In this document: positions 1-32,000 of the stretch, in pieces
Numbering within the stretch: the stretch's first letter is position 1
How the letters are laid out: each line of letters begins with the position of its first letter
DNA from: a cyanobacterium endosymbiont of Epithemia turgida isolate EtSB Lake Yunoko
Lineage (GTDB): Bacteria; Cyanobacteriota; Cyanobacteriia; Cyanobacteriales; Microcystaceae
Length of the DNA stretch: 32,000 bases
Assembly (NCBI RefSeq): GCF_000829235.1
Contig: NZ_AP012549.1
Location: 1,830,001-1,862,000 of the forward strand
Direction: 5' to 3'
Notes under the pieces: generated by a model
The model's input: only the letters and a program-made list of their open reading frames with translations
The model's database searches: none
Told to the model about the DNA's origin: nothing
Position numbers and translations under genes: made by a program

Positions 1-1
1 T

Positions 2-1435
2 GTGCAAGCAAGCCGAACAGTTCGACGGCAATTGGGACAAACTGTTGAAGAAATTTGCTTATCTTCTGAGGAAATTTCTTCTTTTCCCTTGAATAGTGAT
101 CGTCCCCTAAATAAAGTTTTACAAAAAATTGAACCTTGGTTGGACTCTTCCGAATTTCTATTGGGGAAAGAAGTTACACAGACAGAAACTGACAGCGGTA
201 ATTTGGCTCGAAAGTTCACAATTAAAGGAATTGCTAGTGTTTTAGATAGCAGTTGTCTAGTGTTAGTTAAGTCAAACAATCAAACGGTTGATCTTCTTTC
301 CCCTAGTCAACAAAAAATTCTTCAAAAGCTTATTCAAGTAGAAACTGCTAACTATTGCTACGATCGTCGTTTCAAACTAGCTCAATCTCGCAAAACTCCT
401 GGCTTAATCTCTAACTTTTCTACTAACTCCCAAAATGTATTACCTCCAGTACGCTGGTTTTGGCAAAGAATGCGATGGATGCAAACAAGTCCAATAGCAA
501 CAAGACTTAATCTATTTGGGGAATCTTTTTTAAGAGTTAGAATTGAGCATCAGCTAGTCAGCAGTGTAGTGAAACAATCATCTAATTTTAATGTTGAACA
601 CCTAAAAAACTTTACTCAAACAGGAACAGACTATTTTCACAGAAAATCTCAATCAAAAAAATTATTCTCTGAAACTAATCAATTAATTAATATCTGTTCA
701 ATAGGTAAGTTAAAAAGATCGTCTTCTCTACAAAAGAGACCTGAATTATTTGAATATAATATCATTAGTTCTAGTGTAAAAATAATTAAAAAGATTAGAA
801 AAAAGCTACAGCAATCAATCAAATCATCTTTGATAGAAGAAAAAAACAACCCGTTTCAACTTAAAATATTTATTTTTGCTGCTATTGATTACCTTCTTGG
901 CAAGAAAACTTCTAATCTTCGATTAAAACCAAAGCAATCTATTAAAACTATTAAATCTAATTTTTTATTTCCCAACTTTGGCCCACATAAATATGAATTA
1001 ATTAATGAAGATCTCGATGATCTCTGGTTATCTTGGGATGATCTTTATGCAGAAGAAAAAACTTCTAACTCATTGAAAAATTTAACTGATCCACCCATGG
1101 CTTTATCACGAGCTTATAAAGAAGAAACTAACTTAGATAAATCTTTAAAAGAAGATATAAAAGTACTTCTTAAACACCAGAATAAGCGGAGAGAGAACAA
1201 AAAAAATAAGAAGCTTAAACCTGTTGCTATATCTGTCTCTGACGTGAAACCAAAACAGGATTTTATTGGTATAATTCAATCTACTTATCCCGCCGTCATT
1301 GAAACCGAAGCTAAGTCTACGGGGTATGTTAAACATCCCTTAGAGAATATATTAGGATGGCTTGACATGATTATTTCTTGGCTAGAAAGATTAGGAAGTA
1401 AACTATGGGAAGCATTACGAAAGTTAACTAAATAG
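2..1435 (+). CDS. hypothetical protein, 5' end outside window; central Lys/Ser/Asn/Ile-rich low-complexity region
   Basis: A 477-codon stop-free frame enters from the window edge and runs through very AT-rich DNA, where random frames close quickly. I recognise no family by eye. Confidence 0.5.
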   Translation: MQASRTVRRQLGQTVEEICLSSEEISSFPLNSDRPLNKVLQKIEPWLDSSEFLLGKEVTQTETDSGNLARKFTIKGIASVLDSSCLVLVKSNNQTVDLLSPSQQKILQKLIQVETANYCYDRRFKLAQSRKTPGLISNFSTNSQNVLPPVRWFWQRMRWMQTSPIATRLNLFGESFLRVRIEHQLVSSVVKQSSNFNVEHLKNFTQTGTDYFHRKSQSKKLFSETNQLINICSIGKLKRSSSLQKRPELFEYNIISSSVKIIKKIRKKLQQSIKSSLIEEKNNPFQLKIFIFAAIDYLLGKKTSNLRLKPKQSIKTIKSNFLFPNFGPHKYELINEDLDDLWLSWDDLYAEEKTSNSLKNLTDPPMALSRAYKEETNLDKSLKEDIKVLLKHQNKRRENKKNKKLKPVAISVSDVKPKQDFIGIIQSTYPAVIETEAKSTGYVKHPLENILGWLDMIISWLERLGSKLWEALRKLTK

Positions 1436-1463
1436 TATTAGTGTTTCCTATAATGTTAGGACA

Positions 1464-1492
1464 CTCTAACTTCACCTTCAATGAAGTTAGAG
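1464..1492 (+). terminator. possible weak intrinsic terminator after the hypothetical CDS
   Basis: 11-bp perfect stem ctctaacttca / tgaagttagag with a 7-nt loop, 29 nt after the stop. It is followed only by a weak T tract (taaaattt). Confidence 0.3.
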
Positions 1493-1699
1493 TAAAATTT
1501 GACTAGGAGTTGGTTGCAAATATCTTTATTGAAACTCAGCAGTATATTCATGAGCTAATTGTGTTCAGCTTCTTTCTACAAAAAAGGTTACACTCAATAT
1601 CTTATGAGAAAAAAAGATAAGCTTTAGGGGTAAAAAAACGCTACTATACTCATAGATAATATATGAACGATAGTATCTTCTAGATATGAGTATATCTAC

Positions 1700-3106
1700 A
1701 TGAGTCAAAGAACCCTATTCGACAAGGTTTGGGATGCCCATACCGTCAAAATTTTACCCTCAGGACAAACCCAACTCTTTATTGGACTCCATCTAATTCA
1801 CGAAGTCACCAGTCCTCAGGCATTCGCTATGTTGCGTGAAAGAGAACTGGAAGTATTGTATCGTAACCGCACTATCGCCACCGTCGATCACATTGTCCCG
1901 ACAGAAAATCAATCTCGTCCATTCGCTGACTATCTGGCCGAAGAGATGATTCAAGCGTTAGAAAGCAACTCTAAAGAGAACGGCATCACTTTCTATGGTA
2001 TTGGCTCAGGAAATCAAGGAATTGTCCATGTTATCGCACCGGAACAAGGGTTAACCCAACCAGGTATGACCATTGCCTGTGGGGACTCTCATACCTCCAC
2101 CCACGGGGCTTTTGGAGCGATTGCCTTTGGGGTGGGAACCTCTCAAGTTAGGGATATCTTAGCTTCTCAGACTCTAGCTCTGTCTAAGCTAAAAGTCCGC
2201 AAAATTGAAGTTAACGGGACTTTAGGCTCTGGAGTATATGCTAAAGATGTGATACTCCATGTTATACGTAAATTGGGAGTCAAAGGAGGGGTGGGTTATG
2301 CCTATGAATACGCCGGAACTACCTTTGAGGACATGTCCATGGAAGAAAGAATGACGGTGTGTAATATGTCTATTGAAGGAGGGGCTAGATGCGGCTATGT
2401 CAACCCTGACCAAGTGACTTTTGACTACCTTGACGGGAGAGATTTTTCTCCCAGAGGAAACAATTGGAATAGGGCAGTGCAATGGTGGAAAAGTATCCGC
2501 TCTGATGAGAATGCAATCTATGATGATATTGTTACATTTGACGCTGCAGAGATTGAGCCGACGATTACTTGGGGAATTACCCCAGGTCAAGGAATTGGAA
2601 TTAATGAAAAGATTCCTGCCCCTAGAAGTTTGCCCGATAGTGAGCGCGCGATTGCCCAAGAGGCTTATCAGTATATGCAACTGTCCCCAGGAACCTCCAT
2701 CAAAGGCACTAAGGTGGATGTTTGCTTTATCGGGAGTTGCACTAATGGTCGTATTAGCGACTTAAGAGAAGCAGCTAAATTTGCCCAAGGATACCGGGTT
2801 TCTCCAGGGGTCAAAGCTTTTGTAGTTCCAGGTTCAGAACGGGTAAAACTCCAGGCCGAAGCCGAAGGTCTTGACAAAATCTTTGTTGAAGCTGGATTTG
2901 AATGGCGCGAAGCTGGATGTTCGATGTGTTTGGCTATGAACCCTGATAAGTTAAAAGGAGATCAAATCAGTGCCTCCTCCTCTAACCGTAATTTCAAAGG
3001 CCGTCAGGGCTCATCTACTGGACGAACTTTGTTAATGAGTCCAGCAATGGTAGTAGTCGCAGCTATTAAGGGAAAAGTAGTTGATATCCGGGAATTTTTA
3101 TCCTAA
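1700..3106 (+). CDS. leuC: 3-isopropylmalate dehydratase large subunit
   Basis: 468-aa ORF with N-terminus [16 protein letters not shown]. Aconitase-family Fe-S regions [20 protein letters not shown] and CSMCLAMN are present. ATG at 1700. Confidence 0.95.
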
Positions 3107-3533
3107 TGCCAGGGCGGGGTGGCAATACCAATATTATGTCAGATAAACAATGAGACCTATGTATGTATCTTAAACTCTAGTAGCCGAAAATTATTTGTAT
3201 TGGTCTATAAAAATTGTCTTTTTTAGAGTTTACTACAAAATATTATACTTTTTCTTTTCTATAAACGACCATTTGAAAGCATTATCTGAACTTCTTTTGG
3301 CCAAGGTGAAACTTCTATTCATACTAAAATTCCCTAAACTAAGTTAGATCAACAAAAGTTCTTTCCATATTCAGGACTGTAGTTTCTGTGCTTAATGAAC
3401 TAAAAAATATTAATTGTATATCCTTTGCCGATTATATTTAGTCTAGAAACTTGCTTACTTATTGTAATTGCTCTTTAACTCGCGCAAAGTCGCTTTAAAG
3501 CTTTCTAAACAAGCCATTTACTTAACATAGAAT

Positions 3534-3647
3534 ATGTTAAGTACTACTCCCCCTTAGAGTTTTCAGTTTGTGATCGCTGGAGCAGTTATTTTAGTAACTG
3601 TAGGCTACTTACTCAAAAAGCTGAGCCGATTTTATTTATGTTTATAA
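3534..3647 (+). pseudogene. possible psaJ (photosystem I subunit IX) relic with an in-frame TAG
   Basis: The frame reads M L S T T P P * S F Q F V I A G A V I L V T V G Y L L K K L S R F Y L C L *. From memory, PsaJ is ..FLSTAPV..(TM)..[16 protein letters not shown]... The ends LSTxP and TxGxLxxxxxRFYxxL match, but the middle is 6-7 residues longer. Tentative. Confidence 0.3.
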
Positions 3648-3777
3648 ATTTGAACATAGTTACAACAACTAAAGAAGGAAACAAATTTTCACTGTGATTT
3701 AAGTGTAAAATTGCTTAACAATTATTTTGTGTCGTCATAAACGTCACTTAAATGTATTACGCTCTGAGTGGTTTATA

Positions 3778-3825
3778 GCCAGCCTCCTGCGCTGGCTTTA
3801 AGGGAAAAACCGATTTTCCCTTAAA
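3778..3825 (+). promoter_or_regulatory. two adjacent hairpins in the leader of the EF-G paralog
   Basis: gccagc-ctcctgc-gctggc (3778-3796) is followed directly by tttaagggaaaa-accga-ttttcccttaaa (3797-3825). The pair ends 36 nt before ATG 3861. Function unknown: leader structure or terminator of a lost upstream gene. Confidence 0.3.
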
Positions 3826-3860
3826 TACCATTTGTAAGACCTAAACCCTGTAGACCTAGT

Positions 3861-5948: not shown

Positions 5949-5961
5949 ATTTTTCATTGTT

Positions 5962-6003
5962 AAAAAATTCCTGATCGCTATTATTTTCGATCAGGAATTT
6001 TTT
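5962..6003 (+). terminator. rho-independent terminator of the EF-G gene
   Basis: aaaaaattcctgatcg / cgatcaggaatttttt forms a 16-bp stem (GC core cctgatcg) with a 10-nt loop. The T run lies in and after the 3' arm, and the hairpin starts 14 nt after the stop. Confidence 0.8.
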
Positions 6004-6101
6004 ATACTAGAAGCAGATATCCTCGAAAATATTTCTAAGGTACAATCTGATTAGTGCTAGATAAAATTAATTCATAAAGTTAACCAGCAAACGAGTAAAA
6101 T

Positions 6102-6884
6102 TATGCCTTATACATTAATAGTAAAATTGCAGGCTTAACGACAGGAACAGTCCTACAACGCCAGGGAATTAAAATTTTTAAAAAAAGCAAGGTAGGGCAC
6201 AATTACTCACTGTTATGGACCCATAATTTTAACTTTAGGTTAATCAATCAATGGTTACAACACCATGTTATTACGGAATGCTTAGAACAATTAACTGGTA
6301 CTCAACAACCTTGTTATCGGGGTCGTGAAATTAGTCCTAATATTGCTCTATTAAGCATTTAGCCTGAGACTTAGAAATCTATACCTAAACACGGGGAATT
6401 AAAATTGCTTGAGATGCTTACTAACAAAAAATAAGACTAATTTTCACAGAAGTAGTTTAATTTTGACCACTCCTATACTCTAATCCTTAATTCTGCTCGA
6501 GAATTCAGCTATCGCTTTTTCTTCCCCTTGAAGTATAGTATGAACCAGATTAGTTACTAACTTACCATAACTTTGTTCGCGTCACTTGACCACAGAAGTT
6601 CAATCCATGAAGCAGAAGAATTACATTTCAACGATCCTTCCTTAGCGTGGATAGCTTGCAATCACAAAAAAGTAATTTTTACCAAAAAGTTGGACAATAC
6701 ACTACATACTGTGCTCGAGTTAAGTCAAACTTATTGAGGAACATATAACGCCACAATGGTCAAAAAAATATTTAAAATATCTTCTCTATGATTAAATTAG
6801 TCAATCATAGACTATCAAGTTCATCGATGCGATTATAGTCATCCGAACAATATTTATCGAGAACCTTATATACTATTAAGATAG
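6102..6884 (+). pseudogene. FAD-dependent monooxygenase relic (multiple stops and frameshifts)
   Basis: Three fragments follow the order expected for this family. (1) YALYINSKIAGLTTGTVLQRQGIKIFKKSK resembles xDVxIIGAGIAGLTTAxALQRQGIxVxIFEK, with the GxGxxG motif destroyed. (2) HLTTEVQSMKQ...PKSWTIHYIL resembles VHLxxxVxS...GADGIHSxVR, in another frame. (3) CDYSHPNN resembles the GDAAHPMxP motif. All are interrupted by stops. Confidence 0.45.
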
Positions 6885-7071
6885 TAAATCTACCAGGTTT
6901 GTTTATAATGGGAGGAGATAGATTTTCCATAAATAAAACCCAAGATATATCTCTAAATTTTGGAAAAGTAATCTTCTCAGCCTAAGCAAAAACTAATTAC
7001 TTTCTGACTTTAAGAGCAGATCACTTTCAGAAAAATTATTAGATTATCTATTTTTTACTAAAAAATTGTAC

Positions 7072-7129
7072 TTATTTAAATTTTACTAGTTATTTAAATT
7101 AATTTAAATAACTAGTAAAATTTAAATAA
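7072..7129. repeat. 58-bp perfect palindrome (29+29, no spacer)
   Basis: ttatttaaattttactagttatttaaatt | aatttaaataactagtaaaatttaaataa, checked base by base and centred between 7100 and 7101. It contains four ATTTAAAT and two ACTAGT sub-palindromes placed symmetrically. Confidence 0.95.
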
Positions 7130-7492
7130 TAATTTAGATGAATAAAGTCAACCAATTTGACTAGATAAAAATTATTACTTCTCAAAATCTTCATAAAAAA
7201 TCTTAATTATTTTTAGAAAAATCCTAGAAACTATTACGATAAATCACGTTAGCTTAAAGAAAAATTCATAAAGTACCTCTTAAAATAGACTAGATTCTGA
7301 AATAACAGAAAAATTGTCTATAAAAATTTTGGCTTAAGGTTATTTTTATTTATAGAGAGTCCTCTATTAGGTTAGAACTAAAAGTGATACAAATAACCAA
7401 CAACTAAATTCCGAGTGAGGTTAAACATAACGGTAAGAAAAATGTGTCAATAGAATAGGTAAATGCTGTTTATTTTTATAATGTAAGTTTAA

Positions 7493-9094
7493 ATGATCAC
7501 AGACGAGACAAAGCCACAAATATTTTCCTTGACAACTCCTTTGTATTATGTTAACGACGTGCCTCACATGGGGAGCGCCTATACAACTATGGTGGCTGAT
7601 GTCATAGCACGCTTTAAACGACTTAAAGGAGCCTCAGTTCTGTTTATCACAGGAACTGACGAACATGGGCAGAAAATCCAGCGCACTGCAGTAGAAAAAG
7701 ATCTTGATCCGCAACAACATTGCGATCAGGTTGTGACAAGTTTTAAAGATCTATGGCAAAAGTTGAATATTCAATATGATCGCTTTAGCCGCACTACCAG
7801 TCAACATCATGAAACGATCGTCAAGGAATTTTTCCAACGAGTCTACGACAATAACGACATTTACCTAGCTCAACAACAGGGATGGTATTGTGTTCCTTGC
7901 GAGGAATTCAAAGAAAAACGGGAATTACGAGAAGATGCGTGTTGTCCTCTTCATCCCAATAAAAAAGCTGAATGGCGTGACGAAGAAAACTATTTCTTTC
8001 GTCTGTCCAAATATCAAGAAGCTCTCGAAACCTTGTATGAAGAACATTATGATTTTATTGAACCAGAAACCCGCCGAAATGAAATCTTGAAGTTTGTTAA
8101 GCAAGGGTTACAAGATTTCTCAATTTCCCGTGTTAATGTTAGTTGGGGTTTTCCTGTTCCAGTCGATGTCAATCATACCATTTATGTTTGGTTTGATGCC
8201 CTTCTAGGATATATAAGTGCTTTACTTGATTCTAATCAGAAACCGACCCTAGAAAATGCCTTATCTAAATGGTGGCCTATTAATCTTCACTTAATTGGGA
8301 AGGATATTTTGCGCTTCCATGCAGTATATTGGCCAGCCATGTTGATGTCAGCTAAATTACCTTTACCTAAAAAAATTTTTAGCCATGGATTTCTGACTAA
8401 AAATGGTCAAAAAATGAGTAAAACTTTAGGTAATACACTTAATCCTTTTTATTTAGTAGACCGTTATGGCTCCGATGCTGTGCGTTACTATTTTCTCAAA
8501 GAAATTGAATGTGGACGCGATGGAGACTTCAATGAAACCCGTTTTGTTAATGTTCTCAATGCTGATTTAGCTAATGATTTAGGAAATTTGCTCAACCGAA
8601 CTCTTGGGATGACCAGAAAATACTGTAAAGGGATAATTCCTCGAGTAGTTAATTTTCCTTTAGACTATCCCTTAAAAAATACTGGTCAAGATTTGGGGAC
8701 GAGAGTAACTCAAGCCTATGAAACAATCAAGTTTGATCAGGTTTGTAAAGAAATTTTCAGTCTAATTCGGGCAAGTAATAAATTCATTGATGAACAAGCT
8801 CCCTGGAGTTTATTCAAACAAGGAAAACAAGCGGAAGTCGAAACTATTCTGGCTGCTGTGTTAGAATCAGTCCGCCTGAGTGCTTACTTATTGTCCCCAA
8901 TAATTCCCAATTTAAGTAATAACATCTACCAACAATTGGGTTTATCTGTTGATTTTAATGACGGCGATTACGTCCATCAAAATGCTCCCTTCACTCAACA
9001 TAGTCAGTGGGGAAAAATTGAAGTTAGTCAAACTTTAACTAAAACCCAACCTATTTTTGTTAGGCTTAACCTTCCTGAGGAAGAATCTACCTAA
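7493..9094 (+). CDS. metG: methionine--tRNA ligase
   Basis: 533 aa with class I synthetase motifs: PHMGSAY (a HIGH variant) and KMSKTLGN (KMSKS). WYCVPCEEF knuckle region and helical anticodon-binding C-terminus are present. Confidence 0.95.
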   Translation: MITDETKPQIFSLTTPLYYVNDVPHMGSAYTTMVADVIARFKRLKGASVLFITGTDEHGQKIQRTAVEKDLDPQQHCDQVVTSFKDLWQKLNIQYDRFSRTTSQHHETIVKEFFQRVYDNNDIYLAQQQGWYCVPCEEFKEKRELREDACCPLHPNKKAEWRDEENYFFRLSKYQEALETLYEEHYDFIEPETRRNEILKFVKQGLQDFSISRVNVSWGFPVPVDVNHTIYVWFDALLGYISALLDSNQKPTLENALSKWWPINLHLIGKDILRFHAVYWPAMLMSAKLPLPKKIFSHGFLTKNGQKMSKTLGNTLNPFYLVDRYGSDAVRYYFLKEIECGRDGDFNETRFVNVLNADLANDLGNLLNRTLGMTRKYCKGIIPRVVNFPLDYPLKNTGQDLGTRVTQAYETIKFDQVCKEIFSLIRASNKFIDEQAPWSLFKQGKQAEVETILAAVLESVRLSAYLLSPIIPNLSNNIYQQLGLSVDFNDGDYVHQNAPFTQHSQWGKIEVSQTLTKTQPIFVRLNLPEEEST

Positions 9095-9099
9095 ACAGG

Positions 9100-9831
9100 G
9101 TGCTAGAAAAACAATGTTTCTATTACACCTTTTCCCAATTTACAAATACTATGAAATATAAGCCAGAAATAACAAACCCATTTCACAAACCATACCTTCT
9201 CCATAATCAACCAGGAATAAGACAAATGTTTGAAGAATTTGAAGATGATTCTATATTTACGCCAGAACAGGTATTAGAAAATAGAGGACGTGTTGCGATT
9301 TTTATTGATGGCTCTAATTTATTTTATGCTGCTCTTCAATTAGGAATTGAAATTGACTATACAAAGTTGCTGTGTCGACTGACAGGAGGATCTCGGTTAT
9401 TAAGAGCTTTCTTTTATACTGGAGTTGATCGCACCAACGAAAAACAACAGGGTTTTTTATTGTGGATGCGTCGTAATGGTTATCGAGTAATCGCTAAAGA
9501 CTTGGTTCAATTACCCGACGGCTCAAAAAAAGCTAACTTAGACGTAGAAATTGCCGTTGATCTCATGGCTTTAGTCGGAGCTTATGATACCTCCGTAATC
9601 GTCAGTGGCGATGGAGACTTAGCCTATGCAGCTGATTCCGTTAGCTATCGAGGAGCGCGCATCGAAGTTGTTAGCTTGCGTTCGATGACTAGTGATAGTT
9701 TAATCAATGTCGCTGATCGTTATATTGATCTCGACCAAATAAAAGAAGATATTCAAAAAACTCCCAAACCGAACATGTCTTATGGTAGTCTTTCGGGGGT
9801 CGGGATGTTAGATAGCAATAAACCAAGATAA
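9100..9831 (+). CDS. NYN-domain (LabA-like/DUF88) predicted RNase
   Basis: The core RVAIFIDGSNLFYAA ... DVEIAVD ... VIVSGDGDLAYA is the NYN/LabA-like signature. The start is uncertain: GTG 9100, ATG 9151 or ATG 9226 (MFEEFEDD...). Confidence 0.8.
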   Translation: MLEKQCFYYTFSQFTNTMKYKPEITNPFHKPYLLHNQPGIRQMFEEFEDDSIFTPEQVLENRGRVAIFIDGSNLFYAALQLGIEIDYTKLLCRLTGGSRLLRAFFYTGVDRTNEKQQGFLLWMRRNGYRVIAKDLVQLPDGSKKANLDVEIAVDLMALVGAYDTSVIVSGDGDLAYAADSVSYRGARIEVVSLRSMTSDSLINVADRYIDLDQIKEDIQKTPKPNMSYGSLSGVGMLDSNKPR

Positions 9832-9865
9832 GGTAGGTAAGTCAGACTCAAATAACTTCAACCAA

Positions 9866-11035: not shown

Positions 11036-11054
11036 CTTAAACTAACTTTCTTTT

Positions 11055-11771
11055 ATGAGAATGGTATTACCTATGAGTGTAATTACCTCTACCATTATGA
11101 ATCCTTGCATTTTACTAGTACAACTTGACAAATACTTTAATCAACGCGCGAAAGCTGATCTGATAGAAATTGGTTACACTCCAGTGATTGTATCTGATGC
11201 TCATCAAGCTCTACTCGAAGCCGAAAAGCAACAACCGGCTATGATAGTTATTGATCATCACCGCTCAAAAAAAGCTGGGTTGACTTTGTGCCGTCAGTTG
11301 AGAAAGGTTCAAAACCGAGTGTTGATTATTATGGTGCTTGATAAAGAAAGCGTTGAAGAAAGAGTGGCTTGTTTAGAAGTAGGAGCCGATGACTATATAT
11401 TGAAAACTTATCATACTGAAAACCTATTTAGATTAGTCCATTTTTATTTGAATACTACTGAAACAGTTACTGAAAGACTTCAATTTGATCATTTAATGTT
11501 GGATTTGAACAGCCGCCAACTTTTTATAGATGAAACAGCCATTGATTTGACTATGAAGGAATTTGAATTACTTAAATACCTCATGTCTTACCCTAAAGAA
11601 ATATTAACACGAGATAAAATTTTAGAAAATGTTTGGGGATATGATTTTCAAGGCGAATCTAATGTAATCGAAGTTTATATTCGTTATTTACGCTTAAAAA
11701 TAGAGAGTAAAAATCAAAAACGATTAATCCACACTGTTCGTGGTATTGGCTATGTTCTACGAGAAGGATAG
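11055..11771 (+). CDS. OmpR/PhoB-family response regulator with degenerate receiver domain (NblR-like, tentative)
   Basis: The winged-helix C-terminus is intact (LTMKEFELLKYLMSYPKEILTRDKILENVWGYDF...TVRGIGYVL). In the receiver, the acidic pair is replaced (LLVQLDKY), the Asp is kept (IVID), the beta4 Thr/Ser is absent (IIMVLDKE) and the Lys is kept (DDYILKTY). The start is uncertain, with several Met within the first 16 codons. Confidence 0.85.
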   Translation: MRMVLPMSVITSTIMNPCILLVQLDKYFNQRAKADLIEIGYTPVIVSDAHQALLEAEKQQPAMIVIDHHRSKKAGLTLCRQLRKVQNRVLIIMVLDKESVEERVACLEVGADDYILKTYHTENLFRLVHFYLNTTETVTERLQFDHLMLDLNSRQLFIDETAIDLTMKEFELLKYLMSYPKEILTRDKILENVWGYDFQGESNVIEVYIRYLRLKIESKNQKRLIHTVRGIGYVLREG

Positions 11772-11816
11772 TCAAAAAAAAGCGAAAAAAGGGGAAAAAT
11801 TCGACTTTGGACTTTT

Positions 11817-20897: not shown

Positions 20898-21248
20898 ATT
20901 CTTCCAGATTTTAATCAGTCCCTATATCGTTAAATCTTGGTTGTATCTCCGACGATCAGGATAAATTATATTCTATTGCTAATTATTATCTATAGTGCTT
21001 TTACTCATGGTAAAAAAATAAGCGAGGTAGCAACTGTCTATCAAATAAATTGTTAGTTTTAAATCGAACTTTATAGAAATAAATTGGAATAGTTTTATTT
21101 GACATTTTTAGACAGAAAAACTCCATCAATCCGAAAAGTAAGTTGTTTAACTTTCACCGAATAAAGGTGATAATATTGTCCTCTAATTAAATTAATTTGA
21201 AGTAATTTTAAAAAAATCAAGGGGAAAATAATAAAATCTAGTTTTTCA

Positions 21249-23675
21249 TCAAAACCTTTCCCCAATACCAAAGTGGAGGCGGGAATCTCCCTCATTATTA
21301 ACTCCATAGTCAACCCGAATCGGTCCAACTGGTGATTGAATGCGAACACCAAGGCCGTAACCATAACCATCACTAGGCAATCCTCGAATTGTGCCTGGAA
21401 AGCCTTTTACTGAGCGTTGAGACTTAATTGTTGTCCCATAGTCAATAAAGAGAGCTGCTCCAACTGCTGGAATGATAGGAAAGCGGTATTCTGCTGTTGC
21501 TTGAAAATAACTACGTCCATTTCCTAATTCTCCTTCATCGTAACCTCGCACTGAGTTACTTCCCCCAATGACAAAGGCTTCATAAGGAGGTAAATCTTCG
21601 AAAACTGTCCCTGCTTGAAAATTAAAGGCTAATGCTTGAGGTTTTGGCTGATCCTCAGCAATAAAGCCTAAATCAATAAAATCTACAGGGATATAGTGAC
21701 TATAGCTTCCTCGTAATCGGGTAAAGAAAATACTGCCTGAACCTACGGGTATAGTTTGTTCGACTCCCAAACGTAACAGATGACCACTCGTAGGACGTAA
21801 GGGATTGTTACGAAAGTCCTGAGAAGCTCCAAAACTGATAGTAAACAGGTCATCTTTTCCATTATCACTAAAGGCTAAGGGTTGAGAGGGAAAACCATTA
21901 AGAGGGGCTGACAAAGCCGCAATATCACCCTCCGCATTTTCCACTTGAACCCGTTGATAGTTGAAACCTAGGGAAGTTCGCCAATCGGGTACACTAAAGG
22001 CATCATCTGCCAAAGGACGTACAAAAGTTACTCCACCCCCAGTCCGAACTACCCGTGGACTATCAAAGTCGTTGAGGGTTCTAATCGAAGAATGATCTCC
22101 ATCAAAGACTAGAGAAATAGTCCGTCTACGAAATCCATTAACCGTATAAGCAGTACGAAAAGGATCACCGGCAATCCAAGGATCGGTGAAATTGACATCG
22201 AAGAGTAATTCACGTTCTCCAACTTGAACCTCACCCCCAATAGTTTGGTTATTTCCTCCTAGGTTTTGCTCTTGATAACTGAATGTTCCAAACAGTCCGC
22301 TAGTGGAACTAATACCAGCTCCCGCAGCCAGAGATCCTGTATTTCCTTCTACTACATCTACATTAACAATAACTTCTCGCGGATCTTCCCCAGGGCTAAA
22401 AGAAATTCTGACATCTTCGAACAACCCTAAACTAAAAACTCTTTGCAAATCAGTTTGAGCGATTCTGCGGTTAAAAACATTCCCTGGTTCGAGTTGCATC
22501 TCACGAGTCACAATAAAAGAGCGTGTTCGACCATTAATGGGTTCATCCTCTGCGTCGAAAAATCTCACTTGTACGTCTTGAATTACCCCTTCAGATACCA
22601 CTAAGGTTACAATTCCATCATCCCCAACTTTAGGAGAACCAATAACTTGAGCTAGATCATAGCCTTGTTCAGAATACCATTCATTAAGTTTTTGGATACC
22701 GTTTTGTAATTCCCTTAGGTTAAGAATTGTTCTATACTGATCCCCAAAAATATCCTTAACAACTTCAGGAGGTAATGCTCTAGCTTCCTTATCTGTGCCT
22801 GTTTCTACGACAACTTCACTCAGAGTTGGGTTAGCTTGCACATCGAAGGTAATGCGTACCCCTAAAGGTGTATCGGTAGGGGTAACTTTAACATTAGAAA
22901 AGAATCCAGTGGCATAAATTGCATTGACATCCTCTTGCAGCAGAGAGCGAGTAGCTGTTCGTCCTGGCCTAGTTTGAACAGTGTTATAGACTAGATTTCC
23001 TAGGTCCTCGTCAACGCCACTGACTAAAACTTCTACTACTAAAACCCTGGGTTCTTCCCCTGATATTTCTTCAATTAAAGGACTATCTGACGAGGATGGT
23101 TCAATAGGAGTCGGTATTTCTTCTGGGGTTGGTAATTCCTCCGTTTCGGGTAATTCCACCTCAGATACTTCAATTCGTTTTTGAGTATCCGTTGAAGAAG
23201 TTAAATCTACCGCAGTCATCTTTTTTAACTTGGAAACCAAGGGGGTTCTCTGCTCTAAGACTGGTGAACTCTGAAAGTCTAAATCTTCTGAGGTTACAGG
23301 CATTATTAATGCCGGAGTTTCTTGAGAAACAGCTGAATAATTAGCCTTTAAATCTGTCCTAGAAGTTACATCGTCTGTCCTAGAAGTTACATCGTCTGTC
23401 CTAGAAGTTACATCGGTTGCCGTCACGTTTTCCAATATAGAAACCGACTTAGGTGCTAGTACAGCCCCCTCCAGCATGATGGACTTAGAGCCCATCATGC
23501 TCACTATAGTCTCTGAATTCTCCTCTTTGATAGTTGTTTCAATTAGAGGAACTATAGTTTCTCCCCTAATAGACTGGGCCAGGTTTAACATAGTGGCAGT
23601 CACAAAAGGAACTACCACCATAGGAGATAACCGTAATTTTTTAATCTCGTTTGACACTTCCACACACCCAATCAA
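21249..23675 (-). CDS. bamA: outer membrane protein assembly factor BamA / cyanobacterial Omp85
   Basis: 808 aa. It has an N-terminal Pro/Glu-rich linker (ELPETEELPTPEEIPTPIEP), POTRA repeats and a C-terminal 16-strand beta-barrel ending ...RLHFGIGERF with a terminal aromatic residue. The start is uncertain (alternative Met at MVVVPFVTATMLNLAQS). Confidence 0.9.
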   Translation of the reverse strand: MIGCVEVSNEIKKLRLSPMVVVPFVTATMLNLAQSIRGETIVPLIETTIKEENSETIVSMMGSKSIMLEGAVLAPKSVSILENVTATDVTSRTDDVTSRTDDVTSRTDLKANYSAVSQETPALIMPVTSEDLDFQSSPVLEQRTPLVSKLKKMTAVDLTSSTDTQKRIEVSEVELPETEELPTPEEIPTPIEPSSSDSPLIEEISGEEPRVLVVEVLVSGVDEDLGNLVYNTVQTRPGRTATRSLLQEDVNAIYATGFFSNVKVTPTDTPLGVRITFDVQANPTLSEVVVETGTDKEARALPPEVVKDIFGDQYRTILNLRELQNGIQKLNEWYSEQGYDLAQVIGSPKVGDDGIVTLVVSEGVIQDVQVRFFDAEDEPINGRTRSFIVTREMQLEPGNVFNRRIAQTDLQRVFSLGLFEDVRISFSPGEDPREVIVNVDVVEGNTGSLAAGAGISSTSGLFGTFSYQEQNLGGNNQTIGGEVQVGERELLFDVNFTDPWIAGDPFRTAYTVNGFRRRTISLVFDGDHSSIRTLNDFDSPRVVRTGGGVTFVRPLADDAFSVPDWRTSLGFNYQRVQVENAEGDIAALSAPLNGFPSQPLAFSDNGKDDLFTISFGASQDFRNNPLRPTSGHLLRLGVEQTIPVGSGSIFFTRLRGSYSHYIPVDFIDLGFIAEDQPKPQALAFNFQAGTVFEDLPPYEAFVIGGSNSVRGYDEGELGNGRSYFQATAEYRFPIIPAVGAALFIDYGTTIKSQRSVKGFPGTIRGLPSDGYGYGLGVRIQSPVGPIRVDYGVNNEGDSRLHFGIGERF
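23353..23415 (-). repeat. 3 x 21-bp perfect tandem repeat inside bamA (encodes TDDVTSR x3)
   Basis: The unit tctgtcctagaagttacatcg repeats three times without mismatch (23353-23373, 23374-23394, 23395-23415). It is in frame, in the N-terminal linker region VTATDVTSRTDDVTSRTDDVTSRTDL. Confidence 0.95.
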
Positions 23676-24533: not shown

Positions 24534-24698
24534 TTGTTGTTTATCCTTATTAGTAGTCGGCGAGTCGTTTTTGGCTATAGTATTTCGCTGTAAAGATTTT
24601 TCTTAATTTTGACTCAATACAGTTTATTTAAGTTTTAATTGACGGGAGTTTTTTTTGCTTATCATCTGTTGCCAACTTCAATAATAGTTACCCTATGG

Positions 24699-24803
24699 AT
24701 GAAAGACTATGACTCTCTATTTTTAGGAAATGGGCATGGAGAAACACATTAGAGTCTACCTCACAAAAGTGATAAATGCTACACTTTAGTTCAGAAACGT
24801 TAA
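24699..24803 (+). pseudogene. N-terminal relic of an FAD/NAD(P)-binding oxidoreductase (CrtI/phytoene-desaturase-like Rossmann start)
   Basis: M K D Y D S L F L G N G H G E T H * S L P H K S D K C Y T L V Q K R * resembles MxxYDVVVIGAGHNGLxxAxYLAKAGYKVLVLEKR. It has an in-frame TAG and then a TAA. The rest of the gene is not recognisable. Confidence 0.35.
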
Positions 24804-25354
24804 AGATGAATTTGATCATCGAGTCAACTATGGAAAGAAAAGCAACTAGTATTTTTGAATTAATTTAAGTTTATTAATGGCTTTCAACTTGGATAGTCGT
24901 AGAAGCTATGTTCTATAAACTCGTTGTAGTGTTTAAAAAATTAAATATTTATCAATCAAAATAAATATCGTTACATATTTTTAGTTTAAAAAATTAACAA
25001 ACCTCATGTTAACAAGGGATTCAAAATTACGCCTTAATACTAACAGATATTCATTCAAACTTTACTCATTGATTATCTATGTTCTAACTCACACAACATA
25101 GATAGTTTCTCGTTATCTCGAAGTTCTTATCGAGAAAAATTTATTCCAGAAAACTTAGTTATTAATACTAATCTGTAATAATCTGCCCAACAGGTTAGCT
25201 ATAGTCTTAGAATTGAAAAATACTTGTAAAATTTCTCCACATAAAAAGCTTTTTATCGAATAAAAATTTTTAGAAATAACTTGAATATAGTAAAAAAAAT
25301 AAAATTGTGGACTATTGTTCACAATAGGAGTATTTTAGACACTCATAATGATAA

Positions 25355-25371
25355 GGTGGGCATTGCCCACC
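25355..25371 (-). terminator. probable terminator hairpin of ndhB
   Basis: ggtgggc-att-gcccacc is a GC-rich 7-bp stem lying 18 nt beyond the ndhB stop. On the minus strand it is followed by ttatcattat, a weak U tract. Confidence 0.5.
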
Positions 25372-25388
25372 CCAGCTACTACCGACAA

Positions 25389-26954
25389 TTATTGGTGAGT
25401 TAAATTTGATCTAGTCTCAGGTTTAAAGATTTGGTGATGAATAGTGAAGGATTGTAAAATCGGGGTACTAGTTACCGAATTATCAACCAAAGTCAACAAA
25501 GGATTTGCTAAAATTCCAGCCAAAGAAGTCGCAATCATACTCAAGACTAACCCGACTTGTAGGGGACGCATTCCCGATAGATTCCAGCCAATTTTGGGAT
25601 AATTTTTTACGGCATCGGACATTTCTTGAGGTTCTTTGACCACCATCATTTTCACCACGCGAATGTAGTAATAGATGGAAATTACACTAGCGACTAAAGC
25701 GAGGATAACTAACCCATAAAGTTCCGCTTGCCAACCTGCCCAGAAAATGTAAATTTTTCCAAAAAAGCCAGCTAACGGAGGAATTCCACCTAAGGAAAGT
25801 AAACACATACTTAACCCTAAAGTGAGGAAGGGATCTTTTTGATAAAGCCCGGCATATTCACTGATTTTATCAGTTCCAGTTCGTAGGGAAAAGAGAATAA
25901 CTCCCGTAAATGCTCCCAAGTTCATGAATAGATAGACTAGCAAATAAAACAGCATGCTAGAGTATCCTTTATCCGTACCTGACACTAAGCCAATTATGAT
26001 AAAACCTGCTTGGCCAATAGAAGAATAGGCTAACATCCGCTTCATGCTGGTTTGGGTTAAAGCTACCATATTTCCTAGTAACATACTGAGGATAGCTAAA
26101 GCGGTAAAAATAAGATGCCATTGTTCTTCAACCACAGCAAAAGTAGTCACTAACAGACGAATTGCAAGGGCAAACCCGGCAGCCTTAGAAGCCACAGAAA
26201 GAAAGGCGACAACGGGAGTGGGAGAACCTTCGTAAACATCAGGAGTCCATTGATGAAAAGGAACTGCAGAAATTTTAAAGGCAATTCCGGCAATGACGAA
26301 GACTAAGGCAATGATTATCCCTAAAGACTGTTCTCCGCCGAGATTGGCAATGTTAGTAGCAATCGCATTGAGGTTAGTTTCTCCCCCTGATAAACCATAG
26401 AGAAGAGAAAGCCCATACAGAAAAATAGCTGAACTAGAAGCCCCAATTAAAAGGTATTTTAAAGCTGCTTCATTGGAACGAGGGTCCCTTTTCATATACC
26501 CTGTCATTAGATAAGAGGAGATACTTAACATTTCTAGGGAAATAAAAATCATCACCAATTCATTAGCCCCAGATAAGAACATTCCTCCTAGGGTAGACGT
26601 TAACATGATGGCGATAAATTCAGCTAAAGATGTCCTTGTTTGTTCTACGTAACGAACTGACATCAGAACAGTCATTAAAGTAGACAGAGCAATAATAGCC
26701 CGAAAAACAATACTAAGGTTATCTCCGTTAAATGACCCTAAAAAACTTATGGGAGTAGCAGTGTCCCAAGAGAAACAAAGGGCAATAAGCGAAGTAAATA
26801 ACCCAAGTATGGCAGCATATGGTAGCCAGGTTCTCGAACTACGACCAAAAATGAGATCCACTACTAAAATAAAGAGAAGAGTAATGATAACAATTCCTTC
26901 TGGCAGAATTGTTTCGGCATTAAGTTGACTGGCAATGTTACTAGAAAAATCCAT
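25389..26954 (-). CDS. ndhB: NAD(P)H-quinone oxidoreductase (NDH-1) subunit 2
   Basis: Polytopic membrane protein starting [23 protein letters not shown]..., as in cyanobacterial and plastid NdhB. I prefer ATG 26954 over the track's GTG 26978, which adds MFFFHHNS encoded by a T run. Confidence 0.95.
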
Positions 26955-27141
26955 AGAGTTATGGTGAAAAAAAAACACCTAATAGTTAGGTCTAAGAAAT
27001 TATCCGGCTATTTACTCCGGCTTCATCCCTTTGGATCATAATGGACAGAGGGAATTTCGGGCTAGTCTTTAAGGTTGCGTTCACCTTCAGTGCGCCTTTA
27101 GAGATCGTACTTTTGAGGCAATCTTGAACTGATGCGTTATT

Positions 27142-27200
27142 TCTTCAGTAAATCATCTAAAATAATGGTGTTACCATTATTTTAGATGATTTACTGAAGA
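27142..27200. repeat. 59-nt perfect hairpin (28-bp stem, 3-nt loop) upstream of ndhB
   Basis: tcttcagtaaatcatctaaaataatggt - gtt - accattattttagatgatttactgaaga, with arms verified as exact reverse complements. It is followed on the plus strand by tttt. Confidence 0.95.
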
Positions 27201-28536
27201 TTTTAAACTCAGTCGTTTTATAATTTTACTCTCCTAGATTGAGGGTAATATAGTTAATGGTGAAAATACTAGATTAATAGAACTCTTCTTCTAAGATTAT
27301 CAAAGTTAGTTTAGCTATAAACTTGTCTTCTAATTAACTTAATCTTCTGATTTATCTTTTCTAGTATTCATTAGGAGAGTAAATATTAAAAATAAGCTAC
27401 AACTTTTAAAATTAATCTACTTAATTGTCTGAATAACTATTAAGTAAACATCTACAATAAGTTTCTGTTTATTTTGAAGAATTATTGAAAATATTGTGGC
27501 TCAATATCCTAGTATAGTAATATATATTTTGTTCTATTTTATTTTTTTAAAAATTTAAAATAGATATTTTTTATGATACTTTCAATAGTTTTATTTAGCT
27601 ATATGACATTTTATTAGTCCATACTATAGCAAAATATAAAAATTGTTACTATAGTACTATTTATAAAACTATTGATGTTATTAAATATTTTTGATAATAT
27701 CAATAGGCTTATAAAAATTCTATCTAACTTAATAATTTTTAGCTCGGGTTTTATAAATAAATCTAAATCGCATATTTTTTATTAAAAAAGATAAGTAAGT
27801 TAATCAAACTATAACTGTTTTATTCTTTGAGGTTTTAAATAAATTCGATACTATCCCTTCAAACGGCGTTTTTCAAATTAGTCGCCAAAACTATCTAAAT
27901 TACTTTTTATGCTAGTTATTCTATATAGAATATTCTTCTCTTTCCGAAACCCCTGATTATTTACTGAACACTTTATGGTGTTTAGCCAATCTAAACTGAC
28001 AGCGAGCGATTTGTCTGAAAAAATATTTGGTAATCACTTAATAAAATAACTCTCACTCTATACGGGTAATTTAAATTAACTTCATTGTCGCATATTAAAT
28101 ATTATTTTTTTATCATATTTTTACTATTTTATACATTAATATTATAACAAAAAATCTAGGCTTATATTAATTTTTTTTACTGATCTACTACCCTAATCTA
28201 GAAAACCCATAAATTTTTTCCTAAAAAACTAGATTTTTATATATTAAGATAGTTTTCAATTAAGTTTACTTAAGTCGTCAGAGTTATAGAACACAGTTGG
28301 AACAGGGACTTAGGAGTTTATTTTTTATACTTAGTCTAGAATAACTATGATCATTATCATTAATATTTTTATCATAAAGACTTCATCTCTAGTTTTTGAA
28401 GTATTTGATGTTAAACATTCACTCTTAAGCTAGCTAGATTTACTGGATAACAATCAAAAGTTATAAGCCAAAAGTTATAGGTAATGAGTTATCCTGAATA
28501 AAGTAAGGTTACAAAAAAGTTACGAACAACGAAAGT

Positions 28537-29589
28537 GTGATGGACAGAGTTCTGGTCGGTTTGTCAGGGGGTGTTGATAGTTCTGTTGCGGCTGCTAGTC
28601 TTCAGCATCAAGGTTATGAAGTTATTGGGCTAACCCTATGGTTAATCAAAGGAAAAGGACAATGTTGTTCAGAGGGAATGGTAGATGCAGCTTTGATTTG
28701 CGAACAGTTGAGTATTCCCCACCATATTGTTGATAGTCGTGACTTATTTCAAGCTAATATTGTCGATTATTTAGTATCAGGTTATGAGTCGGGGATAACG
28801 CCTCTTCCCTGTTCCCAATGTAATAAGTTGGTCAAATTTGGACCCATGTTAGAGTATGCTAAACAGAAATTGGAGTGCAATCTCATCGCCACGGGTCATT
28901 ATGCACGTGTTCGCTACGATGAAATTAATCAACGCTATCAATTATTACGAGCAGTTGATTGTAATAAAGATCAGTCTTATTTCCTCTATGATCTTTCCCA
29001 AGAAATGTTAGCGGGAACTCTTTTTCCTTTGGGAAATAAAACCAAGGAAGAAACCAGAAAGATTGCTGATGAATTCAAGTTAAAAACCGCAAATAAACCT
29101 GAAAGTCAAGATTTATGTTTAATTGAGGCTTATGGATCCATGAAAAACTTTCTGGATCAACGTATTACTCAAAAAGAGGGAGATATTGTTAGTCTAGACG
29201 GCAAAGTATTAGGAAAACATCAAGGAGTTCATCACTATACTGTTGGGCAACGTAAGGGTTTAGGAATTTCGGCAACTGAGCCATTATATGTAATAAAACT
29301 CGATCCGGTAATGAACCAGGTTATTGTTGCTAATCGTGGCAATGCAGGATCTTCTGGTTGTACTGTAAATAGAATGAATTGGATTTCAATTACTGAACCC
29401 TCTTCTCCTATTCAGGTAGAAGCTCAAATTCGCTATCGTTCTCCTGCAGTTCCAGTTGATGTTATTCCTTTAAATAATCATTGTATCAAATTAGTATTTC
29501 ATGACCCTCAATTTTGGATTACTCCAGGTCAAGCAGCAGTTTTATATGATAAAGAAATTGTATTAGGAGGCGGTATTATTGAAAAATAA
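28537..29589 (+). CDS. mnmA: tRNA-specific 2-thiouridylase
   Basis: 350 aa with PP-loop [10 protein letters not shown], the catalytic Cys region [27 protein letters not shown] and a C-terminal beta-barrel ending GGGII. The start is GTG 28537 or the adjacent ATG 28540. Confidence 0.95.
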
Positions 29590-30997
29590 AAGCCTATTTT
29601 TCTATCAAAAAAAGGTTAAATGTCATCTGTTGAAGAGGGTTAAAACTAATTTGTAGTATTCTCTAAACATGAGGATGTGTAGTGTTATTCGTTACGAACG
29701 AATCAGTATTAATATTTAAGTCGTACCTTAAATCAAGCTAAACATTTTTTTTATATCTTTTTTGAAAACAAATGTTTAGCCTGTGATAATTTATCACTAT
29801 ACAGAGTGATTCTACTGAATATCCCTAGAAAAGAAAGATGGCAAGATCTAGATTAATAGGTGCGAAAAGGTACTATGAATCAACCTTCTTAAGAGCTTTA
29901 CATAGTAATTAACTTCGATTATTCTAGCTTTTCTAGACTGGCTGTCACAATATCATAATAAACAAAAGTTTAAAGTGTTGCTTTGTAAGGTTTCCAAGAT
30001 GACGAAACCCTAATCTTGATAAGAATCTAGTTTATGGAGTTTATAGAATTTAGTTAAAGTAAAAGTTCTGAAAATTATTAGCTACTAATGTATACTCTTT
30101 TATACTAAAATAGTCATTATTTTCGTGTTAAATTTATTTAAAAAATACCTCACTGATGATTATTTGAGTAAGAATAAACTCTCTATGGTTAGTAATTTTG
30201 ACAAAAAAAGTTACGGACAATTGCATAATACTAACAAAAAATACTATCTTTTCCATCAGATTTAATGTTGCTTTCAGCATTATTGGGCTTATTAATTTTT
30301 AAATTTTATTAGCTTAAGCTAGTGCGGTCAGTTTAGTCAGTGCTAGTATAGTAGTTTTGACGACTAATAAGTGCAAAAAGTCTTTGTTATTAGTTTAACA
30401 GTAATCAGATAAACAGAAAATACACTCAACAATCAGCAAGTTACTTGTGAACAATCAATCGTAGGAAATATCTTTGATATAAGTCCTTGTCGAAATCAAT
30501 CAGAATATATTGGTAAAGAATTAAGTAGATAAACTTAAATAAGTGTAAAATATAAAAGTAGTTAAAACAGAGTAATTACTAGATGTTAGTTTACTTAAAA
30601 AATAAGCATATTTATTAATATAAAAAACAAGTAGATTACTAATCTTCTCATTCTCCTGGCTGTTGTTCATTAACAAAGCCACTTTCTTATATTTTTTGGG
30701 AAATCTTTATGTCTTTTTAAGATAATCTCTTTGAGAGACTATAAACTCAATATTTAAAAAATATATTGACTGTTCCTTTTAATATAGTAGTCTTAAGAAA
30801 GATTAAGATATTCCCCGAAACTAGGTAATGTTTACCCTGTAAGGCTTTGATAAGCCTATCCATGTTGTTAGCATCATAATACACATAGTGCATTATGATG
30901 CTACATTTTATCTGTGCTAGACAAAAAACATTAATGACCTTCTGGTTATATTCTTAACTAGAATGCACCTAACAATAAATTTTAGCCCATCTCTTAT

Positions 30998-31318
30998 TTA
31001 TTCTGGAGTTGCTGATTCAAGAAGAAAATACTCACCATTTTTTTGGAAAACAAAAATGCGATCACCTTGATCAATTGATGTTCCTGGATGATGAAATCTC
31101 AATTTTGTATTATCCTCAAGCTTCACAAATAAAACACTACCATAAGGACCTGAAATAATTCCAACAATGGTTCCTGATTGAGAAGGACTGCTGTCCCCTA
31201 AATTTGGGCTAGCAGCTCTTTCTTCTAAATTCGGTTGCCGAACAGTTTGAGCGTTAGCTATGGTAGTCACGCAAACCAGAGCCATTATGCTCATTAATAT
31301 ATTTAAAATTCTCTTCAT
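30998..31318 (-). CDS. small secreted hypothetical protein
   Basis: 106 aa with a clear Sec signal peptide MKRILNILMSIMALVCVTTIANA/QT and then a small beta-rich domain. No family recognised. Confidence 0.45.
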   Translation of the reverse strand: MKRILNILMSIMALVCVTTIANAQTVRQPNLEERAASPNLGDSSPSQSGTIVGIISGPYGSVLFVKLEDNTKLRFHHPGTSIDQGDRIFVFQKNGEYFLLESATPE

Positions 31319-31483
31319 GGTAATTCCCTCTAAGGAGGAGAAATTCCCCTTTGCTTCTCTTTCTTAAACTTTAGAAGGATTTTTAAAATCATACCATAAA
31401 GATAAAATTATAACTACAAAATATGACAACAAACAACAACTGTAAAAGAATAGTTATTAAGATAATTTAAATTAAAAAGATAA

Positions 31484-31502
31484 GTTTGAATCTCAATCAA
31501 AC
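31484..31502 (-). terminator. possible terminator of the PfkB kinase gene
   Basis: gtttga-atctcaa-tcaaac lies 6 nt after the stop. On the minus strand it is followed by ttatcttttt. Confidence 0.4.
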
Positions 31503-31507
31503 AACCA

Positions 31508-32000
31508 TTAATCATTAACTATTTTAGACATCCATTGACGAGGTCCAAAATACTGACAAGCAATGGAGGCAACTTGAGAAGCTTTTGCTATAGAATCTTT
31601 GAAATTGTGTTTTAAAATAAAATGACAGAAAGCTCCATGAAAAATATCTCCAGCTCCTAATGTATCAACTGCTTTTATGTTTGAAACTTCGACATTTCCT
31701 GATTCTTCTTTAGTCCAATATTGAACTGGATTTGCTCCTTTAGTTATAGCAATATAAGGAATTTTAATCTCTTTTAAATAATGAAATACATCTAGAGAAT
31801 TAAGACAATTAGGAGGATAAAAATTTTCAGAGCAAATGGCATAATTTACGTAAGGAAGCACTTTTGGTAATTCAGGTTTCCAGCTTCCTCCATCCAAAAC
31901 AACGGGTATCTTTAAGCGTTGTGCTTCTTTAGCAATTATGATACTCGTAGATATTTGATGCCCATCTACTAAAATAACATCAATATCCTGTAATTTTTTT
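31508..32000 (-). CDS. PfkB-family carbohydrate kinase (ribokinase-like), N-terminus outside window
   Basis: The C-terminal motif VDTLGAGDIFHGAF (the GAGD anion hole) is present. The frame stays open upstream of the track's Met to the window edge (...IDVILVDGHQISTSIIIAKEAQRLKIPVVLDGGSW...). Confidence 0.75.
   Translation of the reverse strand, partial: KKLQDIDVILVDGHQISTSIIIAKEAQRLKIPVVLDGGSWKPELPKVLPYVNYAICSENFYPPNCLNSLDVFHYLKEIKIPYIAITKGANPVQYWTKEESGNVEVSNIKAVDTLGAGDIFHGAFCHFILKHNFKDSIAKASQVASIACQYFGPRQWMSKIVND

Follow-up and report, generated by a model that had tools for sequence, protein, structure and literature searches.

Decayed genes and drifting spacers in a 32-kb window of Epithemia turgida's spheroid-body genome

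The stretch of DNA analysed here (the window) comprises 32,000 nt of the cyanobacterial endosymbiont of the diatom Epithemia turgida (EtSB; contig NZ_AP012549.1, positions 1,830,001 to 1,862,000), and our subject is the series of ten long, AT-rich spacers that lie between its intact genes. The EtSB genome of 2,794,318 bp carries 1,720 genes and 225 pseudogenes at a guanine-plus-cytosine (GC) content of 33.4% (PMC5638926), and is known to be reductive, being without most photosynthesis genes and keeping nitrogen fixation (PMC5638926, summarising the 2014 genome paper). Spheroid bodies are about 12 million years old (PMC5638926), and in diazoplast genomes, which hold more than 150 pseudogenes, reduction is still active (PMC12377750). 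The original prediction, made from the letters of the window without database searches, held that the spacers are decayed genes of a cyanobacterium in reductive evolution. In this paper, we have described the spacers, compared them with the corresponding loci of other spheroid bodies and of free-living relatives, and weighed the explanations for their origin.

Intact genes and long spacers

The spacers were defined as the gaps between 18 non-nested open reading frames (ORFs) of at least 80 aa. These ORFs cover 20,127 of the 32,000 nt (62.9%), which bears out the predicted value of about 63% intact coding sequence, and the ten spacers, which sum to 10,802 nt (33.8% of the window), coincide to the base with the ten intervals that had been proposed. 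The interval given for spacer 3 (12009-13005) is a true gap of this kind, but its start has to be moved to 11772, because the 49-codon ORF at 11859-12008 belongs to a DUF192 gene that has been truncated to a stump. Composition had been proposed as a check, and it separates the two classes of sequence: pooled GC is 29.2% in the spacers and 39.7% in the ORFs, the GC profile along the window alternates likewise between spacers and genes, and the six-frame stop density per codon is raised in every spacer (0.076-0.099, against 0.051-0.075 in the ORFs). The longest open stretch found in any spacer is 88 aa. The spacers and the relics in them are as follows.

Spacer 1: 3107-3860, between leuC and fusA, 32.6% GC
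3477-3669, plus strand: C-terminal part of a gene for a 193-aa conserved hypothetical protein, frameshifted
Spacer 2: 5949-7492, between fusA and metG, 28.8% GC; no recognisable relic
Spacer 3: 11772-13005, plus strand, between nblR and gatD
11871-12050, plus strand: DUF192 stump, the first 60 codons, with an in-frame stop
Spacer 4: 13798-14953, holding the psbM and the 2Fe-2S ferredoxin-like relics
14222-14308, minus strand: psbM pseudogene (PF05151, E 1.7e-13, 50.5 bits), with a stop at codon 2
14557-14847, minus strand: dead 2Fe-2S ferredoxin-like gene, start lost, one in-frame stop
Spacer 5: 17030-18099, minus strand, between hisZ and the inositol-monophosphatase (IMPase) gene
about 17145-17981, minus strand: wreck of a gene for a DnaJ-domain and TPR protein of about 310 aa, frameshifted
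Spacer 6: 18943-19599, minus strand, between the IMPase gene and lpxC
19087-19436, minus strand: pseudogene of a plant-type 2Fe-2S ferredoxin, with ATG changed to ATA, stops and a 9-nt insertion
Spacer 7: 20446-21248, minus strand, between lpxC and bamA
20674-21235, minus strand: nearly full-length DUF2887 pseudogene (PF11103, E 2.8e-17, matching the model from 9 to 199 of its 200 positions), one frame with stops
Spacer 8: 24534-25388, between purC and ndhB, 29.1% GC; no recognisable relic
Spacer 9: 26979-28536, between ndhB and mnmA, 25.5% GC
Spacer 10: 29590-30997, between mnmA and a 106-aa ORF (orf106), 27.8% GC; no recognisable relic

The genes between the spacers are those that the original prediction had listed as intact, i.e. 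housekeeping and envelope genes together with ndhB. NCBIfam assigned leuC, fusA, metG, lptC, nblR, a gene for a GatD-like amidotransferase, hisF, hisZ, the inositol-monophosphatase/HisN-type phosphatase gene, lpxC, an Omp85/BamA gene (IAP75-type), purC, ndhB, mnmA and a gene for a PfkB kinase, and Pfam annotation of an independently assembled contig (Logan SRR29904087) added an NYN-domain protein. Two ORFs, the one at the left end and pfkB at the right, extend beyond the window edges, and both are open.

For comparison across loci, cover by open stretches of at least 100 aa was measured identically in the window and in the fetched loci:

Window (32 kb): 65% cover, 10 gaps of at least 600 nt
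Eight spheroid-body loci: 53-71% cover, 4-6 gaps of at least 600 nt each
Eleven loci of about 21 kb from free-living relatives: 74-89% cover, 0-3 gaps of at least 600 nt each

The low open-frame cover with its many long gaps is real, and it is unusual for a cyanobacterium. The low GC of the spacers is less distinctive than had been claimed, as the non-ORF DNA of free-living Crocosphaera/Rippkaea-type loci has 29-36% GC and the spacers lie only at the low end of that range rather than being visibly richer in AT; their 29.2% is also close to the GC at third codon positions of the window's own genes (29.9%).

The lineage of the window can be read from its genes. HisZ is 93-94% identical to the proteins of the endosymbionts of Epithemia clementina, Rhopalodia gibba and R. 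gibberula, 88% to that of 'Cyanobacterium sp. uoEpiScrs1', 67-77% to those of Crocosphaera/Cyanothece relatives and 57% to those of more distant cyanobacterial metagenome-assembled genomes (MAGs); MnmA is 76-81% identical to its free-living homologues. The window is collinear, genes and spacers alike, with five spheroid-body genomes (RgSB of R. gibberula, R. gibba, R. musculus, the E. clementina endosymbiont EcSB, and uoEpiScrs1), to which long collinear blocks are 81-93% identical at the nucleotide level. The placement of HisZ and this collinearity support E. turgida's spheroid body, a Crocosphaera/Rippkaea-related, obligate, non-photosynthetic and N2-fixing diatom endosymbiont, as the source of the DNA, and the kind of organism suggested by the original prediction was right. 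Gene-less spacers at the same places in the closest relatives had been named as an observation that would count against gene decay; the spacers are indeed shared in this way, but those that share them belong to the same reduced lineage. The free-living relatives (Rippkaea orientalis PCC 8801, Crocosphaera spp. and Cyanothece sp. UBA12306) have the orthologous housekeeping genes, and keep both the cluster ferredoxin-IMPase-DnaJ/TPR-hisZ and the divergent ndhB/mnmA pair, but differ from the window in their higher cover and short gaps.

Gene relics and neutral divergence

Relics were searched for with ORFs from 25 loci of free-living relatives, with the five other spheroid-body genomes and with Pfam, the last being run on X-joined six-frame translations of the spacers. 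Demonstrable gene wrecks were found in six of the ten spacers, which supports the central idea of reductive evolution with decayed genes in the spacers. All seven relics (psbM, two 2Fe-2S ferredoxins, DnaJ-TPR, DUF192, DUF2887 and the conserved hypothetical) have intact homologues in relatives and carry disabling lesions, which comprise start loss, stops, frameshifts, truncation and the loss of essential residues. Recognisable relics account for about 2.5 kb in a spacer total of 10.8 kb.

psbM is the only photosystem gene that falls in the window, and it had correctly been recognised as a broken frame. Its death agrees with the predicted shedding of photosynthesis, for which the genome-wide loss is taken from PMC5638926. 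No nif gene falls in the window; that nitrogen fixation is retained is known from the same source. The two ferredoxins were also rightly called broken frames, each having several lesions. In the spacer 4 relic, one cluster cysteine of CGGYGQCGTC is lost as well, and the gene is open only in RgSB; in the spacer 6 relic, cluster cysteines are lost, and a 1-nt deletion is common to EtSB and the R. gibba spheroid body. RgSB and uoEpiScrs1 have the spacer 6 gene intact; in EcSB it is open but has a Cys-to-Tyr change, and in the two lineages that have the deletion in common it is dead. The EcSB orthologue (locus positions 7462-7893) has Tyr in place of the second 2Fe-2S cysteine (CRNGAYTTC), and this ferredoxin may be a cryptic pseudogene that annotation would call intact.

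Similar stages of decay are seen for the DUF192 gene of spacer 3: three spheroid bodies have it intact, that of R. gibba has it with point mutations, and in EtSB it is truncated, the stump being followed by a deletion of about 455 nt at about 12051-12054. In the remaining ~950 nt of this spacer the six-frame Pfam scan recognised no relic, and a match of a Crocosphaera ORF to the spacer proved to be an antisense artefact. RgSB thus has both ferredoxins and the DUF192 gene open, and EtSB has lost all three. This lineage-specific decay agrees with a passage of PMC5638926 that describes pseudogenisation as less advanced in RgSB.

A synteny comparison, which the original prediction had proposed, shows intact genes in free-living relatives where the window has spacers 1, 5 and 6. 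In free-living Crocosphaera and Cyanothece the intact DnaJ/TPR gene is flanked by the IMPase gene and by hisZ, and in Crocosphaera it is part of the conserved cluster ferredoxin-IMPase-DnaJ/TPR-hisZ. The intact homologue of the spacer 1 relic, a 193-aa protein that matched no Pfam family, is found upstream of fusA in Cyanothece sp. UBA12306. In this MAG, fusA is apparently split into two overlapping ORFs (locus positions 15299-17502) and the C-terminus of the hisZ ORF is extended and divergent; both oddities are probably assembly errors, and the genome should be used with caution as the closest free-living reference.

The pace at which the spacers change was estimated from MAFFT alignments of five genomes over window positions 5900-27070 and of four genomes over 25389-32000. 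Identity to the relatives is 65-91% in the spacers against 86-97% in the genes, and the spacers are far more gapped. Pooled spacer identity to four relatives is 0.80, 0.86, 0.80 and 0.725; at four-fold degenerate sites the corresponding values are 0.84, 0.87, 0.85 and 0.72, and at codon positions 1 and 2 identity is 0.93-0.97. As judged from these alignments, the spacers diverge at about the rate of four-fold degenerate sites, i.e. neutrally. On the EtSB branch, GC-to-AT changes occurred at 0.110 per GC site and AT-to-GC changes at 0.028 per AT site (about 4:1), from which an equilibrium GC of about 20% follows, and 586 nt were deleted against 152 nt inserted. The pattern of the spacers is that of standard relaxed selection, AT-biased mutation and deletion bias.

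Two ORFs of the window without an assigned family deserve mention for their own divergence. The left-end ORF (1-1435, plus strand, running off the window; ORF 2-1435 is 100% identical to a protein of 578 aa, which gives the full length) is a conserved hypothetical with no Pfam or NCBIfam family. It is kept open in all spheroid bodies, has homologues of 33-36% identity in free-living Crocosphaera and Aphanothece, and diverges at the pace of neutral DNA, with codon-position identities to the R. gibba spheroid body of 0.866/0.878/0.849 versus 0.95/0.98/0.88 for leuC; it is under either very relaxed or diversifying constraint. The 106-aa ORF (30998-31318, minus strand), also without a family match, is conserved in every spheroid body examined, and its codon-position identity to uoEpiScrs1 (0.90/0.925/0.66) shows the pattern of a real gene.

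Spacers without recognisable ancestry

Spacers 2, 8, 9 and 10 have yielded no such relic. The six-frame Pfam scan of spacers 1, 2, 8, 9, 10 and the rest of 3 returned nothing but a sub-threshold ISL3 match, and these negatives are meaningful because in spacers 4 and 7 PsbM, Fer2 and DUF2887 were recovered by the same scan. For the relic-less spacers, the best open stretches, scanned singly, had no Pfam match at E ≤10, and no relics of the window's own genes (paralogues) were found in the spacers. ORFs of free-living relatives from around mnmA and the left-end 578-aa gene revealed no relic in spacers 1, 2, 9 and 10, because those loci lack synteny with the window. Spacer 8 can be aligned with its counterparts in the other spheroid bodies, from which it diverges neutrally, and spacer 10 is 1094-1424 nt long in three other spheroid bodies. 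The original prediction had found nothing recognisable in 26979-28536 and 29590-30997; this holds for the latter, and the former (spacer 9) has an ndhB leader and the ISL3 match.

Two identities proposed for broken frames have to be given up. For 'FAD oxidoreductases' there is no Pfam match, no GxGxxG in any spacer frame and no homologue. The open 87-aa stretch at 6099-6359 (plus strand) of spacer 2 resembles an FAD-binding N-terminus by eye only, and has no word-sharing homologue; it has a counterpart only in the R. gibba spheroid body, and phmmer against 1.84 billion representative proteins returned just that copy and a repeat protein. For the 'possible psaJ', tblastn with PsaJ and 14 other small photosynthesis proteins gave a match for PsbM only, and a six-frame Pfam scan of eight of the ten spacers did not find it.

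Spacer 9 consists of the ndhB leader (27010-27092), a palindrome (27142-27200) and then about 1.3 kb. At about 27281-27436 (minus strand) there is a weak match to the C-terminus of an ISL3 transposase, covering the last 30-50 model residues; it scores 16.7-18.5 bits, where the gathering score is 23. In the divergent ndhB/mnmA pair of Rippkaea orientalis PCC 8801 the two neighbouring genes are 199 nt apart, against 1558 nt here; therefore, most of spacer 9 is extra DNA relative to Rippkaea. The sequence comparison suggests that this spacer is probably an old insertion rather than a decayed resident gene, and it may be a dead insertion sequence (IS) element.

Three perfect palindromes lie within the drifting spacers, at 7072-7129 (58 nt), 20868-20897 (30 nt) and 27142-27200 (59 nt). 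The left arm of the first is conserved in three other spheroid bodies, whose right-hand sequence is unrelated, and the R. gibberula copy of the third is merely imperfect. In these two cases a template switch seems to have perfected a quasi-palindrome in EtSB alone.

The alternative that survives best is that spacers 2, 8, 9, 10 and perhaps 7 are no decayed resident genes but relics of selfish DNA, mobile or multi-copy (IS elements or genes of the DUF2887 type), which spread at an early stage of the symbiosis and has since died. Relative to Rippkaea, spacer 9 is an insertion whose excess of about 1.36 kb has the size of an IS, and this spacer holds the ISL3 match; among the loci fetched, only Cyanothece BG0011 has a homologue of the spacer 7 DUF2887 gene, in an unrelated place; and 18 IS relics with fragmented transposases have been reported for EtSB (PMC5638926). 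However, the ISL3 match is below the Pfam threshold, and no inverted or direct repeats (neither terminal inverted repeats nor target duplications) bracket spacer 9. No repeat family links the spacers within the window, and ten published spheroid-body IS relics (7 of the 18 of EtSB and 3 of RgSB; PMC5638926 Table S4) gave no real match to it by blastn and tblastx. Moreover, ndhB and mnmA are not adjacent in Crocosphaera UHCC 0190, which leaves the ancestral order in doubt. For spacer 9, and perhaps for other relic-less spacers, an origin from mobile DNA is plausible though not demonstrated; as an account of the whole group it is unlikely. Less likely still is a bolder version, in which about 5.4 kb (spacers 2, 8, 10 and most of 9) would be what an early burst of mobile or foreign DNA has left, one far larger than the 18 catalogued IS relics, and the EtSB-specific palindromes may mark an unusually active hairpin-templated mutation.

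Origin of the spacers and reductive evolution

The spacers could alternatively be functional non-coding DNA (regulatory sequences, non-coding RNAs or small-protein genes) kept by selection. They persist in all spheroid bodies examined, and a search for 40-nt windows with at least 85-88% invariant columns found two short conserved islands and only these, at 7453-7492 (40 nt, on the metG-start side) and at 27010-27092 (on the ndhB-start side). Both islands, however, abut gene starts and resemble ordinary promoters or leaders. Spacer divergence equals or exceeds that of four-fold sites, which, with the lack of an Rfam match at the gathering score or at E ≤0.1 in the spacers, speaks against the conserved non-coding RNAs or small proteins under purifying selection that had been named as the observation contrary to decay. 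Invariant columns make up 3-53% of the spacers (the 3% reflecting missing relative sequence at spacer 2) against 65-90% of the genes, the lengths of the spacers differ by hundreds of nt among lineages, and, apart from the known dead genes, no conserved small ORFs came out of a consensus reconstruction. A tRNA search of the window found none in the spacers. This explanation is largely refuted and highly improbable.

The island upstream of ndhB (83 nt, minus strand) is 98% invariant in four spheroid bodies, and conserved above the neighbouring coding sequence. Its core, GCAACCTTAAAGACTAGCC.GAAA...TGTCCATTATGATCCAAG, is kept in free-living Rippkaea PCC 8801 and Crocosphaera UHCC 0190. Neither a consensus fold (-3 kcal/mol) nor an Rfam match was found for it, and it is probably an ndhB promoter, a 5' leader or the binding site of a regulator.

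That the frames are broken merely by sequencing or assembly errors, to which AT-rich homopolymer DNA is prone, and that the genes are intact, is practically out of the question and already refuted, as the Logan assembly from a second run is 100% identical across 7100-21771 (14.7 kb, with five spacers), lesions included, one frameshift is common to the separately sequenced R. gibba spheroid body, each relic has several independent lesions of different kinds, and the spacers are without the codon-position pattern of divergence seen in the genes.

We return to decay: the long AT-rich spacers of this EtSB window are, very probably, mostly neutrally drifting wrecks of dispensable genes. Several observations weigh against this. 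Gene homology is undetectable in four of the ten spacers and in about 77% of the spacer DNA, where 'decayed gene' is an extrapolation; as the six-frame Pfam scan finds relics where they are present, these four spacers must be much older or were never genes. Spacer 9, at about 1.36 kb longer than the Rippkaea gap, replaced no gene that Rippkaea carries there; its transposase match is below the Pfam cut-off and it matches none of the ten IS relics compared. Synteny with free-living relatives is found at only a few sites, so that the ancestral content of most spacers is not directly readable. We infer that the four relic-less spacers are older products of this same decay and that no spacer DNA is expressed or functional.

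The decay may have proceeded as follows. Genes that intracellular life made dispensable, such as psbM, the two ferredoxins, DnaJ-TPR, DUF192, DUF2887 and the hypothetical, would have lost constraint and been disabled through loss of start codons, nonsense mutations, frameshifts and loss of ligand residues. The wrecks would then drift neutrally under the ~4:1 GC-to-AT bias, with more bases deleted than inserted. The outcome would be gene-sized, AT-rich and stop-filled spacers that slowly shrink while their ancestry fades, some 77% of the spacer DNA being already beyond recognition.

Pseudogene load, GC content and loss of photosynthesis genes in the window agree with the published description of EtSB, and nothing substantive differs. 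In UCYN-A, a sister-type N2-fixing endosymbiont for which 57 pseudogenes have been reported (PMC12377750), reduction is further along.

The finding is thus correct but is already published biology, and adds no new principle. The inference drawn from the raw sequence was right, with the FAD oxidoreductase and psaJ labels to be dropped. Mycobacterium leprae, Sodalis glossinidius, 'Nostoc azollae' and Richelia intracellularis HH01, which belong to other lineages and live in other hosts, are likewise pseudogene-rich genomes in early reductive evolution, with a coding density of about 50-60%, many gene wrecks, AT drift and a deletion bias that has yet to compact the genome. The low coding density, pseudogenes and loss of photosynthesis of EtSB were reportedly described by Nakayama et al. 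in PNAS in 2014, and the genome reduction of spheroid bodies is said to have been re-analysed by Nakayama and Inagaki in 2017 and again in work of 2025. Spheroid bodies are a young model for the transition from bacterium to organelle, and their pseudogene-laden genomes capture it in mid-course; the window is a textbook illustration of this, in which sister lineages hold genes at one stage of decay after another and the rate of change is neutral, with an AT bias and a deletion bias.

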